Source: an uncultured Mycoplasmatota bacterium (lineage in GTDB: Bacteria > Bacillota_I > Bacilli_A > RF39 > UBA660). Taken from it: a stretch of 52,905 nt of DNA. Where the stretch lies: positions 1 through 52,905 of the forward strand of contig CAMNAC010000001.1 of NCBI GenBank assembly GCA_946530475.1, given 5' to 3'. The notes below the pieces were generated by a model. It saw only the letters and a list, made by a program, of their open reading frames with translations. It was not told the DNA's origin and did no database searches. Every line of letters starts with the position of its first letter. Position 1 is the stretch's first letter. The position numbers were made by a program, and so were the translations under genes. Shown here piece by piece: positions 14,589-50,804 of this stretch.

Positions 14589-14607
14589 AAAAGCCATTTG
14601 GCTTTTT
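14588..14607. terminator. Bidirectional terminator between the convergent htpG and noc-like genes
   Basis: The stem AAAAGCC / GGCTTTT is flanked by an A-run and a T-run. Confidence 0.6.
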
Positions 14608-16198
14608 ATTTTTTTGTTACTTTGAAAATTACTTGATACATATTTTCTAAATCAAATTCATCTGTATCTACTTCATAACCTAACTGTTTTAAGTTTTCTG
14701 CACAAGCTCTAATTGCATCAAGTGCTTGTGTCATATTATTTGTTTGAGGAGCAGTATTAGGCACTGCTACAGTTGGTTCTGGAATCGAAGCTTCCATAGT
14801 TGGTTGTGAAACTGGTGCTGGTTCATTATCTAAATTTTCTAGAAAACTATAATCTGGTGTAGTTACAGGTCCAGTTGGCATTTGAGGTTGTGGTGCTTGT
14901 GGAAGTGATAAATCCAAATCCAATGGTTGCTCTGGTTCTTCTACAACTGCTTCTGTTGGCACTGTTGGTGCAGCAGGTGTTCCAACAACTGGTTCTGTAG
15001 GTACTGCTGGTGTCACAGGTTCTGATACAACTGGTGCAGCTGGAGTTACATCTGGCAATGAACTAATTGGCGCTGGTTCCAATACAGGAGCTTCTTGAAC
15101 TGGAGCTGGAGCAATTGGTTGCGCATTAAACCCATCTGCAACTGGAGAAGGCTCTAAATTTGGAATTTGTGGTTTTTCAGCTACATTTAATACATCAAAG
15201 AATTTTCCAGGAGTTACTTCAGGTGCTGCTGGTTGTGGTTGTGCTTCCACTGGAGCAGGTGCTGGAGCAATTCCGGATGGATTTAATAAATTGTTCACAT
15301 CTACAGAAGGTTTTGGCTCAAAAATATTGGTTGCATTTTGTTCAATTTGATTAATATCCATAAAACCAGGATTTACACTTGGTTCTTCATGTACCTCATC
15401 AATAATTGGAGATACTGGGATATTTACATTTTGATCATTCATTTTTGGTTCCTCCTTTTCATCTAAATCTAATACTTCTAATGGTTCTGAAACTTCTGGA
15501 ATAATAGGTGTTGCTTCTTTTACTTCAGGCATTACGGAAACTGGTTCAGGTACCTTATTTTCAACAGGTTTCTCTTCTATTGTCTCTTTATTTGTTCCAT
15601 TTAGTATTTTATTAATTTCTTCATCCGTTTTTCTTACTGTTAAACGTTTTTCTATAATCTTCTTCAATAATTCTCTTTGATCTTTTTGACTTAATTTTAA
15701 TAAAGAACGAGCATGTCTTTCTGATATTTTTTCATTTAACAAGGCTTCTTGTACATCATCATCTAGATTTAGCAAGCGAAGTTTATTTGCAACTGTAGAT
15801 TGATCTTTCCCTAATTTATCAGCCAATTGATTTTGGGTTAAATAGCCCATATCTAATATTTTCTTATAAGATACTGCTTCTTCAATTGGAGTTAAATCTT
15901 GTCTTTGTACGTTTTCAATCAATGCAATTTCTGCGCTATCTTTATCATCTAAGTTTGCAACTAATGCAGGTATTGTCTTCATACCAGCTAACACACTTGC
16001 TTTATAACGACGTTCTCCTGCTATAATTTCATATTTGTCTGCAATTGGTCTTACGACAATTGGTTGAATAACTCCATGTTCTTTAATAGATTCTGACAAC
16101 TCATTAATTGCATCTTCATCAAAACGAATTCTTGGTTGAAAACGGTTAGGTAAGATATCATCTAAATTTAATTCAATTACTTTTTTTTCTTCTTTCAT
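14606..16198 (-). CDS. noc: ParB/Noc family protein with a Noc-type HTH, a long Pro/Ala/Val-rich insertion and a Noc-like C-terminal domain (530 aa)
   Basis: The N-terminal domain contains LPNRFQPRIRF...HGVIQPIVVR...AGERRYKA (the GERR CTP-binding box). The HTH reads LTQNQLADKLGKDQSTVANKLRLLNL...ISERHARSL, close to B. subtilis Noc (GKGQSTIANKLRLLKLP...ITERHARAL) as I recall it. The C-terminus ALDAIRACAENLKQLGYEVDTDEFDLENMYQVIFKVTKK resembles the Noc C-terminal domain. The gene lies directly downstream of rsmG, the canonical noc position. Confidence 0.8.
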   Translation of the reverse strand: MKEEKKVIELNLDDILPNRFQPRIRFDEDAINELSESIKEHGVIQPIVVRPIADKYEIIAGERRYKASVLAGMKTIPALVANLDDKDSAEIALIENVQRQDLTPIEEAVSYKKILDMGYLTQNQLADKLGKDQSTVANKLRLLNLDDDVQEALLNEKISERHARSLLKLSQKDQRELLKKIIEKRLTVRKTDEEINKILNGTNKETIEEKPVENKVPEPVSVMPEVKEATPIIPEVSEPLEVLDLDEKEEPKMNDQNVNIPVSPIIDEVHEEPSVNPGFMDINQIEQNATNIFEPKPSVDVNNLLNPSGIAPAPAPVEAQPQPAAPEVTPGKFFDVLNVAEKPQIPNLEPSPVADGFNAQPIAPAPVQEAPVLEPAPISSLPDVTPAAPVVSEPVTPAVPTEPVVGTPAAPTVPTEAVVEEPEQPLDLDLSLPQAPQPQMPTGPVTTPDYSFLENLDNEPAPVSQPTMEASIPEPTVAVPNTAPQTNNMTQALDAIRACAENLKQLGYEVDTDEFDLENMYQVIFKVTKK

Positions 16199-16296
16199 TG
16201 TACTTCCCTTCCTATTCTTAAAATAATCATACTATATTTTGGGAAATAAAACAATGATTTTTTGGGAAATAATTATATTTTTTATTTTTTTATTTT

Positions 16297-19480: not shown

Positions 19481-19496
19481 TATTTCCCGGGAAATA
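19481..19496. promoter_or_regulatory. Perfect Noc-binding-site (NBS) palindrome TATTTCCCGGGAAATA
   Basis: The 16-bp perfect palindrome contains the published 14-bp NBS consensus ATTTCCCGGGAAAT. It lies between convergent genes. Confidence 0.6.
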
Positions 19497-26716: not shown

Positions 26717-27163
26717 ATGTTAGAATCATATGAAGTAAATTCTTCTACACTTGCTTTATTAGCGCTTAATGAGCATACTACTAAAGTTGTGGAAAAAGAA
26801 AAGGAGTATTATATTTCTAAACCATCCATTAAAATTATGGATGATAGTTGTAAATACTTCGGAAGCTCTTATTTAGGTAGAGAAGAGGGATCTAGAAATT
26901 TAATAGGAAGTACTTATAAAGTACCAATTATTGTAGAGGAAACAAAGAGAATGATTTTTATTCCAACTTCTTCACCAAAATTTAGTACTTGTGATTGGAT
27001 TGCTTTTCATCATATTTATAAGTATGAAGAAAAAGAAAATGGACTTTATATCTTATTTGATAATGGAAAACAAATCAGTATTAATATGTCTTATTATTCG
27101 TTTGAAAACCAAATATTGAGAGCTTCTAAATTAGAAAACACGATTCGAAATAGAATTTCATAA
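26717..27163 (+). CDS. comK: ComK family competence transcription factor homolog (148 aa)
   Basis: LESYEVNSSTLALL, DDSCKYFGSSYLGREEGS, IFIPTSSPKFSTCDWI and SYYSFENQ match conserved blocks of B. subtilis ComK as recalled (LESYEVNGATIAVL, DRSCRFFGSSYAGRKAGT, LFPTLSS..QCGWI, SYNSFENQ). Confidence 0.8.
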   Translation: MLESYEVNSSTLALLALNEHTTKVVEKEKEYYISKPSIKIMDDSCKYFGSSYLGREEGSRNLIGSTYKVPIIVEETKRMIFIPTSSPKFSTCDWIAFHHIYKYEEKENGLYILFDNGKQISINMSYYSFENQILRASKLENTIRNRIS

Positions 27164-30357: not shown

Positions 30358-32844
30358 ATGGAAGAAGAAAATAAAACAAATGAATTTGGTGGCACCTTTC
30401 ATGAAAGAGATAGTCACTTAGAAAATAACATTGTAGATGAAGTTAAAAAATCTTTCTTGGATTATTCCATGAGTGTTATTACAGCCCGTGCGATTCCTGA
30501 TTTAAGAGATGGATTAAAACCGGTTCATAGAAGAATATTATGGACGATGTTTGAAGAAGGAAATACTCCTGATAAGCCTCATAAAAAATCAGCAACTACA
30601 GTTGGTGCTGTAATGGGTAGATACCATCCACATGGAGATAGTTCCATTTATGATGCCATGGTTCGTTTAGCGCAAAGCTTTAACCAAAGACATACTTTAG
30701 TAGATGGACATGGTAACTTTGGTAACATTGATGGTGATGGAGCTGCTGCATATCGTTATACAGAAGCAAGATTATCTAAGATTTCCTTAGAATTACTGAG
30801 AGATATTCGTAAGGAAACCGTTGATATGGATGATAACTTTGATGAATCATGCAAAGAACCACATGTTTTACCATCAAGATTTCCTAATATTTTGGTAAAT
30901 GGTTCTATGGGAATTGCAGTTGGTATGGCAACTAATATTCCACCTCATAATTTAGGAGAAGTAATCGATGGATGTGTTGCATACATAGATAATCCTGACA
31001 TTGATACATTAGGGTTAATGCAATATATTAAAGGGCCTGATTTTCCAACAGGAGCAGTTATTTTAGGTAACTCTGGTATTAAAAAGGCTTATGAAACAGG
31101 TAGAGGAAGTATTACAATTCGTTCTCGTGCTGTGATTGAAGAAGTTGGAAATCACAATCAAATTATATTTACTGAAGTTCCATATGGAGTAAATACTTCA
31201 GAATTAAAAAACAAAGTTGCAGAATTAGTTAGAGATAAAGTAATTGATGGAATTACTGATTACCATACGGATTTAAAAAATGGAGTTAAAATTACAATTA
31301 CTTTAAAGAAAGATTCTAATCCACAGGTTGTTTTAAATAACTTATATAAGCATACAAATTTTCAAATGAATTATGGAATTATATTCTTAATGCTAGATAA
31401 TGGTACTCCAAGAACACTTGGATTAAAAGATATTATTTCAAAATACATCGATTATCAAAAAGAAGTTATTATTAGAAGAACTCGCTTTGATTTAAAAAAA
31501 GATGAAGAAAGAGTTCATATTTTAGAAGGTTATAAAATAGCCTTAGATAATATCGATGAAGTTGTAAAAATTATTCGTAATGCGAATGATGATGAAGAAG
31601 CTAGAACAAATTTAATGAATCGATTTAATCTTACAGAAATTCAAGCAAATGCGATTCTAGAACTTAGATTACGTCGTTTAACTGGATTAGAAAGAGATAA
31701 AATTGAATCGGAATTAGCAGCATTATTAAAAGAAATTGAAGAATTAAAAGCTATTTTGGCGTCTGAACAAAAAGTATTGGATATCATTAAGAAAGAAATG
31801 CTTGAAATCAAAGAAAAATATGCAGACGAAAGACGTACAGAAATTGATATGACCGCAATTGATTATATTGAAGATGAAGCTTTAATTCCAAATGAAAAAG
31901 TAATTATCGCAATGACTGAAAAAGGTTATATTAAGAGAATGACTGTAGATACTTATAAAACTCAAAATAGAGGTGGTGTAGGTATCAAAGGTATGACTAC
32001 AAATGAAGAAGATTTTGTCGAACATATGATTGATATGAAGACTCACGATTACATCTTATTCTTTAGCAACAAAGGTAAAGTATATCGTATGAAAGGGTAT
32101 GAAGTTCCTCAATTTAGTAGGCAATCAAAAGGACTTCCTATCATTAATTTATTGCCATTAGAAAAAGAAGAAGTGATTCGTACAATTCTTAAGGTTGAAA
32201 CAGAAGATCCTAATAAATATTTGGTATTCTGTACAACAAATGGATTAGTTAAGAGAACTCAAGTTTCTGAATTTGAGAACATTCGTACGAGCGGTAAGAT
32301 TGCAATTTCATTAAAAGATAATGACGAACTATTAGCAGTTAGAAAGACTACAGGAAGCAATGAAATCTTAATTGCATCTTCGAATGGTAGAATGATCCAT
32401 TTCGATGAAAATGAAATAAGAGTTATGGGTAGAACAGCATCTGGAGTTCGCGGTATAGAAGTTGGTGATGGAAAAGCTGTTGGATGTGAAATAGCTGAAC
32501 CAAGTCAAAAAATTGTAATTGTTACTGAAAAAGGTTATGGAAAACAAACAAATTTGGATGAATATCGAATGACTCATAGGGGTAGTAAAGGTGTTAAAGC
32601 ACTTAATATTACAGAAAAGAATGGTAATATTGTTTCATTTAAAACAACAAAAGGTAATGAAGACTTAATGATTATTACAAATAGTGGTGTAATTATTCGT
32701 TTACCTTTAGCACAAGTTTCTACTACTGGAAGAGTTGCTCAAGGAGTTCGATTAATTCATTTAAAAGATGATCAGAGTGTTAGTAGTGTGGCATTACTCG
32801 AAAAAGAAGAACTTCAAGATGAACAAAATGAAGAAAAAGACTAA
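30358..32844 (+). CDS. gyrA: DNA gyrase subunit A
   Basis: FLDYSMSVITARAIPDLRDGLKPVHRRILW, the QRDR region GRYHPHGDSSIYDAMVRLAQ and the C-terminal beta-pinwheel repeats are present. Confidence 0.97.
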   Translation: MEEENKTNEFGGTFHERDSHLENNIVDEVKKSFLDYSMSVITARAIPDLRDGLKPVHRRILWTMFEEGNTPDKPHKKSATTVGAVMGRYHPHGDSSIYDAMVRLAQSFNQRHTLVDGHGNFGNIDGDGAAAYRYTEARLSKISLELLRDIRKETVDMDDNFDESCKEPHVLPSRFPNILVNGSMGIAVGMATNIPPHNLGEVIDGCVAYIDNPDIDTLGLMQYIKGPDFPTGAVILGNSGIKKAYETGRGSITIRSRAVIEEVGNHNQIIFTEVPYGVNTSELKNKVAELVRDKVIDGITDYHTDLKNGVKITITLKKDSNPQVVLNNLYKHTNFQMNYGIIFLMLDNGTPRTLGLKDIISKYIDYQKEVIIRRTRFDLKKDEERVHILEGYKIALDNIDEVVKIIRNANDDEEARTNLMNRFNLTEIQANAILELRLRRLTGLERDKIESELAALLKEIEELKAILASEQKVLDIIKKEMLEIKEKYADERRTEIDMTAIDYIEDEALIPNEKVIIAMTEKGYIKRMTVDTYKTQNRGGVGIKGMTTNEEDFVEHMIDMKTHDYILFFSNKGKVYRMKGYEVPQFSRQSKGLPIINLLPLEKEEVIRTILKVETEDPNKYLVFCTTNGLVKRTQVSEFENIRTSGKIAISLKDNDELLAVRKTTGSNEILIASSNGRMIHFDENEIRVMGRTASGVRGIEVGDGKAVGCEIAEPSQKIVIVTEKGYGKQTNLDEYRMTHRGSKGVKALNITEKNGNIVSFKTTKGNEDLMIITNSGVIIRLPLAQVSTTGRVAQGVRLIHLKDDQSVSSVALLEKEELQDEQNEEKD

Positions 32845-32859
32845 TTATTAGTCTTTTTT
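32834..32859 (+). terminator. Rho-independent terminator after gyrA
   Basis: The palindrome AAAAAGACTAAT / ATTAGTCTTTTT encloses the stop codon and is followed by a T-run. Confidence 0.65.
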
Positions 32860-32946
32860 ATTGTCTGGGAAATAAACAAAATGCTAACGAATTAATTTTG
32901 GGAAATATTTTATATATAACATTGTATTTAGTTATTAAATTAGCGT

Positions 32947-33064
32947 ATGTTTCACGTGGAACTATGAAATTTTGTTGTTATGTTCCACGTGAAACTATAA
33001 AAGTATATCACTATGTTCCACGTGAAACTATAAAAGTATATCACTATGTTCCACGTGAAACTAT
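32947..33064. repeat. parS-like site cluster A: 4 copies at exact 33-bp spacing
   Basis: The 19-mers ATGTTYCACGTGRAACTAT lie at 32947-32965 (T/G variant), 32980-32998, 33013-33031 and 33046-33064. The inner 16-mer TGTTCCACGTGAAACT matches the parS consensus TGTTNCACGTGAAACA at 15/16 positions. Copies 2-4 sit in a perfect 33-bp tandem repeat, TATGTTCCACGTGAAACTATAAAAGTATATCAC. Confidence 0.8.
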
Positions 33065-33258
33065 GATTTAACGAATTTAATGTCTATATAAAATTGTAAT
33101 TATATTTGATATTATAATTATTGAGCAAAGCGCATAAATCCTTATTTTATAATGCTTTTATGTACTTACTTATATAATAGCACAACATAATTTAAGATAT
33201 TTTTATCTTAAATAATAAATCAAATTAAATATGCAATCTAATTAGAAATTAATATTTA

Positions 33259-33407
33259 ATGTTCCACGTGAAACTATAATAAACTGAACAATGTTCCACG
33301 TGAAACTATGAAATAATAAGACTATGTTCCACGTGAAACTATATCGCACTGAACAATGTTTCACGTGAAACTATGAAATAATAAGACTATGTTTCACGTG
33401 AAACTAT
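33259..33407. repeat. parS-like site cluster B: 5 copies at alternating 32/33-bp spacing
   Basis: The same 19-mer lies at 33259-33277, 33291-33309, 33324-33342, 33356-33374 and 33389-33407. The last two copies are the perfectly palindromic GTTTCACGTGAAAC variant. Copies 6-9 lie in a 65-bp tandem duplication. Confidence 0.8.
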
Positions 33408-33500
33408 ATTAATAATTAAATTTTGAAACAAATCTGTGTTTGTAAATAATGAAAAAAATATAAAATAATGAATTTAATAAAATAATTACAAAACATAACC

Positions 33501-33520
33501 AATATTTCCCGGGAAATATT
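33501..33520. promoter_or_regulatory. Perfect 20-bp palindrome containing an NBS (AATATTTCCCGGGAAATATT)
   Basis: The core TATTTCCCGGGAAATA lies at 33503-33518 and is identical to the copies at 19481 and 41100. Confidence 0.65.
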
Positions 33521-33565
33521 TGAAAACTATTGATTTTGTTTAAAAAATAGTGTATTTTATTAATT

Positions 33566-33640
33566 GACACAACATTTATGTATGAACCAGGTCAGAGTTG
33601 GAAGACAGCAGCCTTAAATACCTCTAAGTGTGTGTGTCAT
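33566..33640 (+). ncRNA. ffs: Small (4.5S-type) signal recognition particle RNA
   Basis: AACCAGGTCAGAGTTGGAAGACAGCAGCC matches the conserved domain IV of E. coli 4.5S RNA (ACCAGGUCAGGUCCGGAAGGAAGCAGCC), including the GGAA tetraloop. The 5' arm GACACAACATTTA pairs with the 3' arm TAAGTGTGTGTGTC to form one long hairpin, which is followed by a T-run. A possible promoter is TTGATT (33530) -17 nt- TATTTT (33553). The ends are approximate. Confidence 0.65.
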
Positions 33641-33657
33641 TTTTTTATGGTGATGTT

Positions 33658-40530: not shown

Positions 40531-41373
40531 ATGTCACAAAAAAGTTATGACAATAGTCCTACTGTATATCTAATACCAACTCCAATTGGAAATATGGATG
40601 ATATGACTTTTAGAGCTGTAAAAATATTACAAGAAGTGGAAGTTATTTTTTCTGAGGATACAAGAGTTACAAATTTGTTATTAAAACACTTTGATATCCA
40701 TAAAAAATGTATTTCGAGCCATAAATTCAACGAAGAAAAAAATCATGAAAAACTTCTTTCTTATTTAGAAAAAGGCTTTCATGTTGGAGTTGTAAGTGAT
40801 AGGGGAACCCCTGTTATCAGCGATCCAGGTTATGAACTAGCAAAATATGCGATTGATAAAGGATATAATGTAGTAGGGTTACCAGGCGCAACAGCTTTAA
40901 TTCCCGCACTTATTATGTCTGGGATTTCTCCACAACCTTTCTTATTTTATGGATTCTTAAATAATAAGGATGGAAAAAGAAAGAAAGAATTAGAAAGTTT
41001 AAAAGAAGAAAAAGCAACTCTTATTTTTTATGAAGCACCTCATCGTTTAGAAAAAACATTGCTTTTGATGAAAGAAGTATTGGGAAATCGTAAGATAAGT
41101 ATTTCCCGGGAAATAAGTAAAAAGTTTGAAGAAGTTTATAGAGGAACTTTTGAAGAAGTTTTAAAAGAAGTAAAAGATGCAAAAGGAGAATTTGTAATTG
41201 TGGTAAGTGGAAATACAGATGAATCTTCTTTTGAACATTTATCTATTATTGAACATGTAAATTCATATTTAAAAGAAGGATATACAAAAAAAGAAGCATA
41301 TAAAAAGGTTGCTTCTGATAGGGGTATCAGTAAAAATGAAGTTTATCAAACATATGAAAGGGGGATTTTATGA
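40531..41373 (+). CDS. rsmI: 16S rRNA (cytidine1402-2'-O)-methyltransferase RsmI
   Basis: The track ORF starts at 40483. The ATG at 40531 follows a GGGAG RBS. LYLIPTPIGNMDDMTFRA, SDRGTPVISDPG and FYEAPHR are present. Confidence 0.9.
   Translation: MSQKSYDNSPTVYLIPTPIGNMDDMTFRAVKILQEVEVIFSEDTRVTNLLLKHFDIHKKCISSHKFNEEKNHEKLLSYLEKGFHVGVVSDRGTPVISDPGYELAKYAIDKGYNVVGLPGATALIPALIMSGISPQPFLFYGFLNNKDGKRKKELESLKEEKATLIFYEAPHRLEKTLLLMKEVLGNRKISISREISKKFEEVYRGTFEEVLKEVKDAKGEFVIVVSGNTDESSFEHLSIIEHVNSYLKEGYTKKEAYKKVASDRGISKNEVYQTYERGIL
41100..41115. promoter_or_regulatory. Perfect NBS palindrome TATTTCCCGGGAAATA inside the rsmI coding sequence
   Basis: The 16-mer is identical to the copies at 19481 and 33503 and encodes ...SISREIS... 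Confidence 0.55.
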
Positions 41374-49001: not shown

Positions 49002-49223
49002 AGTTTAAAAGTTTTGATGGAGAGGGAAAGAAGAATTTCTTTTAAAAGAGAATCTATGGTTGGTGAAAATAGATAAGAAAGCTTTTTTCAAATGGCTCTT
49101 GAACTGATTTACCGATAGGTAGGTAGATACGTAATTCTGCGTTAAAGATTTAAGGTGTATCTGGGATACATAAATTAAGGTGGTACCACGTAAACTACGT
49201 CCTTATCGGATGTGGTTTTTTTA
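49002..49223 (+). promoter_or_regulatory. T-box leader (Met-specific candidate) with terminator, upstream of metG
   Basis: An extended -10 (TGTTATACT) lies at 48987-48995. An AGAGA box and a GGTGAAA distal-loop motif are present. The candidate AUG specifier is at 49092-49094 (CAAAUGG), just 5' of the Stem I closing strand. The T-box sequence AATTAAGGTGGTACCACG lies at 49174-49190. The terminator stem ACGTCC/GGATGT (49197-49213) is followed by a T-run. Confidence 0.8.
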
Positions 49224-49238
49224 TTTAGGAGGGATAAT

Positions 49239-50804
49239 ATGAAAGAAAAATACTATATTTCCACTGCGATTGCTTATACATCAGGGAAACCACATATTGG
49301 AAATACTTATGAAATTGTTCTTGCAGATGCGATTGCTCGATACAAACGTTTTTTAGGGTATGATGTTTATTTCCAAACAGGAACTGATGAACATGGGGAA
49401 AAAATTGAATTAAAGGCAAAAGCACAAGGAAAAGAGCCACAAGAATTTGTTGATGAAATCGCATTAGAAGTAAGAAGAATTTGGGATACGATGAATACAA
49501 GCTATGATAAGTTTGTAAGAACAACTGCACCATCTCATATGGAAGAAGTTGCGAAAATCTTTAAGCGATTATATGATCAAGGGGATATTTATAAAGGAAA
49601 ATACGAAGGTTTATATTGTACTCCATGTGAATCTTTCTTTACCGAAAGTCAATTAGTAGATGGAAAATGTCCAGATTGCGGAAGAGAAGTTCATGTCGCA
49701 TCAGAAGAAGCATATTTCTTTAAACTTGAAAAATATGCGAAAAGATTAGAAGAATATATCGAAACACACCCAGATTTTATTCAACCTGAATCAAGAAAAA
49801 ATGAAATTATTAATAACTTTATTAAGCCTGGTTTACAAGATTTATGTGTATCTCGTACTTCTTTTGACTGGGGTATACCAGTATCATTTGATGAAAAACA
49901 TGTTGTCTATGTTTGGATCGATGCATTAAGTAACTATATTACCTTCTTAGGTTACCATACTGAAGAGGAATCTGAAGAAGATTTTAAAAAGTATTGGCCT
50001 GCAGATTTGCATCTAATTGGAAAAGATATTTTAAGATTTCATACAATTTACTGGCCAATTATGTTAATGGCATTGGATTTACCTTTACCAAAACAAATCT
50101 TTGGACATCCTTGGGTATTGATTGGAACAGATAAGATGAGTAAATCCAAAGGAAACATCATCTATGCAGATGATTTAGTAAATCTATTTGGGGTAGATGC
50201 GGTAAGATATTATTTATTACATGAAATTCCATTTGCATCGGATGGAACGATTACATATGAATTACTAATTGAACGAATCAATTCTGATTTAGCGAATATC
50301 TTAGGAAATTTAGTCAATCGTACTATCAGCATGAGTCATAAATACTTTGATGGAGTTGTATTAGAACCAAAAGAAGAAGAGAAAATTGATCAAGAATTAA
50401 AATCTTTAGTTTTAGATACAACAGAAAAAGTAAATCAAAAAATGGATCGTCTTCGTATAGCAGACGCTATCGACGATATTTTTGAAATCTTTAGAAGATG
50501 TAATAAATACATTGATGAAACAACTCCTTGGGCACTTGCAAAAGAGGAATCAAAAAAAGAAAGATTACAAACTGTCTTATATAACTTATTAGAATCTATT
50601 CGTCATGGAGCTGTTTTGTTACAATCTTTTTTACCAGAGACTGCAGATTCTATTTTTCATCAATTAAATACGGAAAATAGATATTATGAATCTTTATCTA
50701 ACTTTAATGGATTGGATTATGGAATTCATTTAAATAAGCCAGAACCATTATTTATACGTATTGATAAAGAAAAAAAATTAAAAGAAATTGAAGAAAGTGA
50801 ATAA
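49239..50804 (+). CDS. metG: Methionine--tRNA ligase (short form, no C-terminal tRNA-binding appendix)
   Basis: The preferred start MKEKYYISTAIAYTSGKPHIGN (HIGH motif) follows an AGGAGG RBS. A zinc knuckle (CTPCESF...CPDCG) and the KMSKS motif are present. Confidence 0.95.
   Translation: MKEKYYISTAIAYTSGKPHIGNTYEIVLADAIARYKRFLGYDVYFQTGTDEHGEKIELKAKAQGKEPQEFVDEIALEVRRIWDTMNTSYDKFVRTTAPSHMEEVAKIFKRLYDQGDIYKGKYEGLYCTPCESFFTESQLVDGKCPDCGREVHVASEEAYFFKLEKYAKRLEEYIETHPDFIQPESRKNEIINNFIKPGLQDLCVSRTSFDWGIPVSFDEKHVVYVWIDALSNYITFLGYHTEEESEEDFKKYWPADLHLIGKDILRFHTIYWPIMLMALDLPLPKQIFGHPWVLIGTDKMSKSKGNIIYADDLVNLFGVDAVRYYLLHEIPFASDGTITYELLIERINSDLANILGNLVNRTISMSHKYFDGVVLEPKEEEKIDQELKSLVLDTTEKVNQKMDRLRIADAIDDIFEIFRRCNKYIDETTPWALAKEESKKERLQTVLYNLLESIRHGAVLLQSFLPETADSIFHQLNTENRYYESLSNFNGLDYGIHLNKPEPLFIRIDKEKKLKEIEESE

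Follow-up and report, generated by a model that had tools for sequence, protein, structure and literature searches.

Noc-binding-type sites packed among parS sites near the replication origin in a clade of low-GC gut and rumen Bacilli

The subject of this study is a site-rich spacer in a 52.9-kb stretch of DNA from an uncultured Mycoplasmatota bacterium (contig CAMNAC010000001.1, positions 1 to 52,905; the whole stretch is referred to here as the window). Downstream of gyrA, this spacer holds an array of parS-like sites, of the type on which ParB is loaded, together with sites of the type bound by Noc (Noc-binding sites, NBS). The same NBS-parS pairing was retrieved from ~180 related sequences, and chance is an unlikely source of it. 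We propose that the gyrA-ffs-tadA-dnaX zone is a centromere-like region that may serve as a shared loading platform for two ParB-family clamps dependent on cytidine triphosphate (CTP), with a Noc-type protein encoded in the window as the putative adaptor, a reading to which we give a probability of roughly 0.6. What was observed directly, and carries the argument, is the sites with the statistics on them, the extent to which relatives conserve and interleave them, and, for the Noc-type protein, its residues and architecture. Four other explanations, all of which we rank below the shared platform, are weighed where the evidence bears on them. ParB and Noc are a textbook case in which one DNA-binding specificity became two after gene duplication, and they have been described at separate places, with few centromeric parS sites as against dozens of dispersed NBS. 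Here, in hundreds of genomes, both site types are systematically packed near the origin and are even amplified as one repeat unit.

Sites between gyrA and dnaX

The array of the window consists of nine parS-like sites (TGTTYCACGTGRAACT) situated between the NBS-type elements, all with an intact 14-bp core and differing from the 16-bp parS reference palindrome (TGTTNCACGTGAAACA) in the outermost base alone; relatives carry the perfect 16-mer, and no other parS-like site occurs in the window. These canonical palindromes are origin-proximal, as in ParABS systems: cumulative GC skew turns at 22–24 kb, which places the array ~9 kb from dnaA and from the skew minimum.

The sequence-only reading of the window had named three NBS-type sequences around this array, all of which were recovered where it had placed them (Table 1). 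The downstream one is a perfect palindrome that contains the complete NBS reference 16-mer and lies 97 bp past the last parS site and ~35 bp ahead of the gene for the small signal recognition particle (SRP) RNA. Three perfect copies of the 16-mer occur in the window (starting at 19481, 33503 and 41100), compared with a mean of 0.40 matches in shuffled windows even when up to three mismatches were allowed, and the downstream palindrome is far beyond chance. The copy within rsmI uses the codons TCC and CGG, which we take to be rare in such an AT-rich genome. A perfect NBS ~7 kb downstream of gyrA, at a distance similar to that of the 41100 site, was also seen in L005, L006, L007, L012, L016 and L055. 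The palindrome at 33501–33520 stands immediately upstream of a promoter-like TTGAAA-17-AAAAAT (33520–33548) and of the SRP RNA gene, and it might be a transcription-factor operator of the SRP RNA or tadA promoter that has nothing to do with Noc. We consider this very improbable and place it last among the alternatives, given that the identical 16-mer recurs between convergent genes (19481) and inside rsmI (41100) as well as at many positions in relatives, that it equals the experimentally defined NBS and that a Noc-type protein is encoded in the window.

The degenerate element upstream of the array, which directly follows the gyrA hairpin and T-run, has a perfect right half (GGGAAATA) and a left half (TATTGTCT) with three mismatches in which A1 and C6 are kept. 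In relatives, NBS with three mismatches occur at a density near background (0.011 per kb inside the gyrA-dnaX interval and 0.0055 per kb outside); taken alone, this 13/16 site is not significant. The single half-site at 32900 is likewise weak evidence by itself, and the half-site 8-mer is over-represented throughout the window (18 matches against 3.06 expected, 12 of the 18 outside the three full NBS). In 25 relatives, an NBS that is perfect or has one mismatch was found within 110 bp of the gyrA stop codon, usually straight after the terminator T-run, and the layout of the window, an NBS followed by a GGGAAATA half-site, recurs in L021 and L035. On the basis of this equivalent position, we read the upstream elements of the window as the decayed copy of a once-perfect NBS, and the 32859 site is probably a decayed NBS. 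The bracketing of the array by NBS, as first proposed, is thus strong on its downstream side, whereas upstream it comes down to a 13/16 site that is probably a relic.

Contigs with an identical TadA protein were taken to represent the same species as the window. A perfect NBS lies 155 bp ahead of tadA in every one of these contigs that reaches there (L092–L097), and the degenerate upstream NBS is kept in such contigs as well, L096 having a variant with an equal number of mismatches; L093, L094 and L096 retain both the downstream NBS and the upstream degenerate site. The parS copy number differs among these assemblies (3+4, 3+2 and 4+5), two ENA scaffolds have runs of N across the array (L092, 2376–2475; L094, 2640–2757) and several of the contigs terminate inside it. 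The array is real but hard to assemble, and not too much should be made of the exact number of nine.

We then compared 80 loci from relatives, one genome per species, in which GyrA is 62–81% identical to that of the window. Among the relatives, the closest are metagenome-assembled genomes from gut and rumen that bear the labels Bacilli, Tenericutes, Erysipelotrichaceae, Clostridium sp. CAG:302, CAG:594 or CAG:884, which we take to be RF39-like lineages. In nearly all 80 loci, parS arrays lie straight downstream of gyrA, and many of them have a perfect NBS in the same spacer. Densities were counted in the 65 loci with a complete gyrA-dnaX interval (the window and 64 relatives). Perfect NBS cores numbered 68 in 94 kb of interval against 26 in 1.32 Mb of flanks (~1 per 50 kb), a 37-fold higher density, while the corresponding figures for perfect parS cores were 254 and 4. 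The density of NBS in the interval was also 10-fold that of the remaining non-coding DNA at these loci (0.725 versus 0.073 per kb). NBS were present in the interval of 38 loci, and 35 had both site types. Among the 82 NBS-like sites in the intervals, 66 were perfect, 14 had one mismatch and 2 had two or three, a pattern that points to purifying selection on NBS. The sequence-only reading had proposed that a lack of flanking NBS in relatives with the parS array would mark the juxtaposition as chance. These counts do not refute it on that score and support a juxtaposition that is not fortuitous.

The arrangement of the two site types varies among the 65 loci. They are interleaved in 23, whereas parS alone is found in 21; NBS lie only on the gyrA side in 13 and only on the dnaX side in 4, including the window, and neither site type is present in another 4. 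NBS restricted to the two flanks were seen at no locus. Several lineages have a single tandem repeat unit composed of one parS and one NBS, with a length of ~73 bp (L078; parS, 19 bp, NBS), ~104 bp (L032) or ~113 bp (L049), and parS-NBS-parS triplets stand on either side of the SRP RNA gene in L070 and L073.

These arrangements bear on the idea of boundary formation by flanking sites, which had been suggested from the window and finds no counterpart among the 64 relatives. More generally, a Noc-type protein held at NBS could be a roadblock or insulator that limits ParB sliding, shielding the gyrA terminator or the ffs and tadA promoters, or sizing the partition complex. A sole NBS at the gyrA edge in 13 relatives, or at the dnaX edge in 3 relatives and the window, would suit such a role, as would the position of the NBS of the window between the array and the SRP RNA gene; a 2020 study in eLife is said to have found that DNA-bound proteins block ParB sliding. 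NBS inside the arrays, as in the 23 interleaved relatives, would break ParB spreading into pieces instead of setting limits to it, NBS confined to the two flanks occur in none of the relatives, and the upstream barrier of the window would be a 13/16 relic. Moreover, loaded Noc-type clamps leave their site and slide, which makes them poor static barriers (PMC8429893). We regard a roadblock as unlikely and place it second among the alternatives.

Metagenomes were scanned for an NBS core located 8–38 bp from a parS core, and this tight pair was found on at least 120 contigs. Homologues of gyrA, tadA or dnaX were present on 115 of the 120 tight-pair contigs listed, the GC content of which was 19–38% (≤31% in nearly all); the tight pair is common and, among the contigs listed, almost confined to the gyrA-dnaX locus of this clade. 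The one clear exception is the unrelated contig L203 (741–4110; GC 49%), on which a Noc-type gene is followed by a spacer holding three parS sites and one NBS, then by soj and a ParB-type gene. Here, 33 bp separate the 14-bp cores of the tight pair, and the specificity residues are Q/K/Q/R in the Noc-type and R/S/N/G in the ParB-type protein. Judging from L203, the proximity of parS and NBS may be older and wider than this clade.

The edge-to-edge gaps between adjacent parS and NBS 16-mers (de-duplicated) showed peaks near 9–12, 19–21, 31 and 44 bp with troughs between them. At a period of ~12 bp, which is somewhat longer than 10.5 bp, the Rayleigh statistic was 0.27–0.33 (p ~0.001 versus a smoothed null, uncorrected for kinship). 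This spacing hints at a face-of-the-helix constraint between two bound dimers.

The enrichment and the spacing also bear on hitch-hiking or chance, in which an NBS present at ~1 per 50 kb would have been tolerated in an AT-rich spacer and copied by the tandem expansion of parS, the two systems being uncoupled. The arrays clearly grow by tandem duplication, parS copy number varies among the identical-TadA contigs, 21 of the 64 relatives, most of the closest ones to the window among them, have parS only, and some of the co-amplified NBS are imperfect (CCCAGG, CCTGGG in L032, L049), all of which would be expected of hitch-hiking. It accounts poorly for a 37-fold enrichment over flanks and a 10-fold enrichment over other non-coding DNA, for the predominance of perfect sites (66 of 82), for the many unrelated unit architectures and spacings, for a single, unrepeated NBS right after the gyrA terminator in 25 species, for tight metagenome pairs that, among the matches listed, occur almost only at this locus, and for the periodic spacing. 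We think hitch-hiking unlikely, even if it comes first among the alternatives to a shared platform.

To compare site classes, we collected the sites fitting the framework shared by parS and NBS, the two halves of which are T-x-TT-N-C-x-C and G-x-G-N-AA-x-A (~1,070 sites in total). The genome relatives contained 283 pure parS, 103 pure NBS and no hybrid of a parS half and an NBS half, and the metagenome loci listed contained 364, 292 and 1, respectively. The near absence of hybrids argues for two separate homodimeric readers.

Some relatives have other motifs at this locus. In L018 (12514–13206) and L076 (12555–13265), arrays of a variant palindrome (TGTTCCACGAGCAACA) replace canonical parS, and they may mark a lineage with a shifted ParB specificity. 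DnaA-box-like CTGTGGAAAAC and TGTGGATAA recur in the first 110 bp past gyrA in L060, L061, L064, L065, L068, L074, L075 and L077, relatives in which parS is present and NBS are few.

The Noc-type protein and the reader of parS

The ParB-family protein encoded in the window has both ParB_N and HTH_ParB Pfam domains, and its best profile match is TIGR04285 (Noc), with 289.9 bits compared with 187 bits for the generic ParB model. Its top matches among solved structures are Geobacillus and Bacillus Noc (207 and 183 bits; 7NG0 and 7NFU score 207 bits), followed by ParB structures at 165–181 bits. Residue Q173 (Caulobacter ParB numbering) reads the NBS base A1 and R201 reads C6, and one permissive lysine, at 179 or 184, suffices (Jalal et al., 2020; PMC7383237). 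The window protein has Q-K-N-R at positions 173/179/184/201, and hence Q173, R201 and one of the two permissive lysines (K179, with N at 184). Its 120 closest database homologues are all long (411–661 amino acids) and, bar one with Q-T-N-R, all have Q...K...[N/K/E]...R at these positions, exactly Q-K-N-R in 112 of them. The CTP motifs GERR (G61, E62, R63, R64) and ENxQR (E95, N96, Q98, R99) were invariant in an alignment of 46 homologues. The product of 14606–16198 is thus the presumed binder of NBS. In the intergenic region between rsmG and this gene, two NBS half-sites (TATTTCCC) form a direct repeat 23 bp apart (16241–16271) and overlie the likely promoter of the Noc-type gene, and autoregulation through them is possible.

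The architecture of the protein differs from that of Noc at both the N-terminus and the centre. The N-terminal and DNA-binding domains (residues 1–200) are followed by a ~280-residue linker, disordered in the AlphaFold model save for one short helix, and by a C-terminal dimerisation domain (489–528). The protein starts 16 residues ahead of PNRFQPR, compared with 39 in Bacillus subtilis Noc, and its residue 3 aligns with residue 24 of Geobacillus Noc. The ~23-residue N-terminal extension of Noc, the seat of its 10-residue amphipathic membrane-targeting helix, is absent from the window protein and was found in none of the 120 homologues. Removal of this 10-residue peptide from Noc abolishes liposome and membrane binding, and division occlusion is lost as well (PMC8429893). 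The linker has its own conserved motifs, namely hLDF, NIPxxPI, NPGFMDxxKIExxAxDI (the short predicted helix), [KR]FFxh with acidic residues, and PDYSF; the two phenylalanines of the KFF motif, F333 and F334, show little or no variation. The [KR]FFxh motif and its acidic residues resemble the Noc membrane peptide SRFFGLGEKE, a likeness of sequence only. At NCBI, these homologues are labelled only 'ParB/RepB/Spo0J family'. Noc-type proteins with a long linker and without the membrane helix apparently constitute a large undescribed subfamily, and the 'ParB family' proteins beside rsmG in gut metagenome-assembled genomes are actually Noc-type.

Canonical parB and parA were sought by tblastn with Spo0J, Soj and the N-terminus of the Noc-type protein as queries, and neither turned up in the window, the 80 genome loci or the 120 metagenome loci, save in L203. 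Gene tables past both ends of the window showed neither of them. There was no second ParB-family gene in ~63 kb around the origin of this species (the window and 10 kb beyond its left end, L087), nor within 10 kb of the noc-type gene in L084, L086, L219 and L220 (contigs of 130–830 kb), and neither parB nor parA was found near gyrA in ~200 loci. The noc-type gene follows rsmG in every case examined, and the usual soj-spo0J pair is missing beside it. From the perfect conservation of canonical parS, a ParB encoded elsewhere in the genome is most likely.

A single protein might also read both motifs, as the sequence-only reading had offered as one option: ParB would have been lost, and the long-linker Noc-type protein, or a factor outside the ParB family, would serve parS too. 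Consistent with this, no second ParB-family gene came to light near the origin, the noc-type gene or gyrA, and noc is not followed by its usual partners soj and spo0J. Q-K-N-R is, however, essentially invariant in the family, and variants with Q173 favour A at position 1, whereas R173 is constant among those specific for parS (PMC7383237). Hybrid sites should be acceptable to a homodimer of dual specificity, yet only ~1 in 1,070 sites is a hybrid, and the match of the parS sites to the universal ParB consensus is perfect. Although no canonical parB was located, the option is disfavoured by the residues and the near absence of hybrids, and we hold it to be quite improbable, third among the alternatives.

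A putative shared loading platform

According to the shared-platform reading, the nine parS sites would load a canonical ParB encoded outside the window, the perfect NBS at 33503 would load the Noc-type protein encoded at 14606–16198, and the 32859 site, now decayed, would formerly have loaded the Noc-type protein too. Once loaded, both clamps would occupy the same origin-proximal DNA, and the Noc-type adaptor would link the complex of ParB and parS with the membrane, or with a partner in division or replication, in a lineage in which ParA was looked for and not found. This adaptor role is proposed because the membrane helix has been lost and a motif-rich linker gained. Actual binding, CTP-dependent clamping, a separate ParB and the adaptor function are thus parts of the mechanism that we infer. 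Staphylococcus aureus provides a partial precedent: it has Noc and ParB without ParA, and the initiation of replication is likewise under the control of its Noc (PMC5540599).

More tentatively, and with rather more doubt than for the platform itself, the locus could be a true two-clamp centromere of this low-GC gut and rumen clade of Bacilli, in which ParB and a repurposed Noc paralogue would be loaded next to each other, with helical phasing, within a few hundred base pairs. The paralogue would have a part in anchoring the origin, in segregation or in controlling replication, not in classical nucleoid occlusion, and would replace the missing ParA. In a more extreme version, the clade would be without canonical ParB and parS would be read by something new.

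Several points weigh against the shared platform. The strong NBS of the window lies outside the tight class of 6–36 bp, at 97 bp from the nearest parS, and its upstream NBS is degenerate. The closest relatives sampled (L004–L007, L009, L010, L012 and L055; GyrA 76–81%) have parS without NBS in the interval, and L008 (GyrA 78%) has neither, which implies that the pairing has been gained and lost; it may be of little weight in the sub-lineage of the window. Tandem co-amplification could multiply an NBS that merely happened to stand next to parS, and the enrichment and periodicity statistics ignore shared ancestry. As no canonical parB or parA was found in the loci read, the second protein, the binder of parS, is one that we infer. 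The Noc profile score is below the curated TIGR04285 cutoff of 315, since only model positions 1–215 of 255 match, and it is conjectural that the linker motifs make the protein an adaptor.

Should the shared platform hold, it raises the questions of whether two different CTP-gated sliding clamps share one track, whether ParB and Noc-type clamps block, trap or co-condense each other, and what the role of a Noc without a membrane helix might be. It would also offer a natural system for origin-region positioning in bacteria where ParA was not found.

The window (GC 29%) covers an origin region, and its contig has matches among metagenome scaffolds in ENA. To the left of oriC, the gene order is uvrB, htpG, the 530-amino-acid ParB-family gene, rsmG, mnmG, mnmE, jag, yidC, rnpA, rpmH and oriC; to the right it is dnaA (24018), dnaN, comK, recF, gyrB, gyrA, the site-rich spacer, SRP RNA, tadA, dnaX, ybaB and recR. 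The longest tadA open reading frame (GTG at 33628) overlaps the SRP RNA gene, and the recorded product begins at ATG 33658 (147 amino acids). A promoter and terminator scan of the interval was uninformative, with fewer promoter-like matches than in shuffles and no terminator calls; the G-C pairs of the gyrA hairpin were too few for it to be called. We also considered whether the stretch separating parS cluster A from cluster B might be a relic of the SRP RNA promoter and rejected this idea (alignment score 21 versus a shuffle mean of 21.9). A comK homologue (26717–27163, plus strand) lies between dnaN and recF and has the same placement in L084, L086, L219 and L220. A spoVT homologue is present, a spoIIR homologue lies just beyond the window, and a T-box leader (49005–49207) precedes the methionyl-tRNA synthetase gene (49212–50804).

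Table 1. Coordinates of sites and genes in the window
Feature	Position	Strand	Remarks
Noc-type ParB-family gene, 530 amino acids	14606..16198	-	directly downstream of rsmG
Second perfect NBS	19481..19496	.	just past terminator between convergent genes
gyrA	30358..32844	+	upstream edge of site-rich interval
AT-rich hairpin and T-run	~32834-32859		overlaps gyrA stop codon
Degenerate NBS, TATTGTCTGGGAAATA	32859..32874	.	13/16 to TATTTCCCGGGAAATA, the NBS reference 16-mer
Isolated NBS half-site, GGGAAATA	32900..32907	+	
parS cluster A	32948..33062	.	4 sites, 33-bp spacing, within 33-bp tandem repeat
parS cluster B	33260..33405	.	5 sites, 32-33 bp spacing, within 65-bp tandem unit
Perfect 20-bp palindrome, AATATTTCCCGGGAAATATT	33501..33520	.	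holds perfect 16-bp NBS at 33503-33518
Small SRP RNA gene (ffs)	33556..33651	+	within or beside site array in this clade
Third perfect NBS	41100..41115	.	inside rsmI coding sequence

Comparison with known systems

The site types and both protein families are already known, whereas the NBS-parS packing, the composite units and the helix-less Noc paralogue appear to be new. In agreement with the initial claim that the arrangement had not been described, the searchable literature yielded no description of NBS packed among parS at one origin-proximal locus or of co-amplified composite units; it yielded none of a helix-less, long-linker Noc paralogue either, and nothing relevant on RF39 in connection with ParB. 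We ourselves know of no description of NBS-parS packing, composite repeat units or such a paralogue.

With the Noc-NBS system of B. subtilis and S. aureus, the locus shares the 16-bp palindrome TATTTCCCGGGAAATA, a protein nearest to Noc by profile and solved structures that has Q173, K179 and R201 and keeps the CTP motifs, a gene directly after rsmG, and scattered origin-proximal NBS at ~1 per 50 kb in the flanks. The window protein differs in being without the N-terminal membrane helix that is essential for nucleoid occlusion (PMC8429893), in having N rather than K at 184 and in its ~280-residue disordered, motif-bearing linker. Furthermore, NBS in this clade are concentrated among parS at one locus and not only dispersed, and soj and spo0J are not adjacent.

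Chromosomal parS clusters of several sites are known, for example in Corynebacterium and Streptomyces, as are the tandem-repeat centromeres of plasmids. Like these ParB-parS centromeres, the array is canonical, origin-proximal and clustered, with tandem sites at about three helical turns, and it holds the only parS in 53 kb. Unlike them, the arrays of the clade have a second, non-cognate ParB-family loading site embedded in or beside them, and the parAB operon is not nearby, the array being located in the gyrA-dnaX interval, around the SRP RNA gene.

In sporulating B. subtilis, RacA binds ram sites in the origin region, acts beside Spo0J/ParB and attaches the region to a cellular landmark, and the likeness lies in a second DNA-binding system concentrated at the origin or centromere. 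RacA is not a ParB-family CTP clamp, and the ram sites extend over about 600 kb, are sporulation-specific and are not interleaved with parS at the base-pair scale. In plasmid RK2, KorB and KorA bind adjacent OB and OA operators, and KorA shapes the clamp behaviour of KorB. This provides a precedent for the coupling of neighbouring sites, and KorB is among the structure matches (PDB 8QA8); the partner KorA, however, is a small repressor and not a second clamp, and the purpose is plasmid gene silencing. Finally, the noc-[parS x3 + NBS]-soj-spo0J locus of L203 has the same tight NBS-parS pair in one intergenic region, but there both cognate genes flank the sites, and the pair involves a single NBS, at another locus and without tandem composite units.

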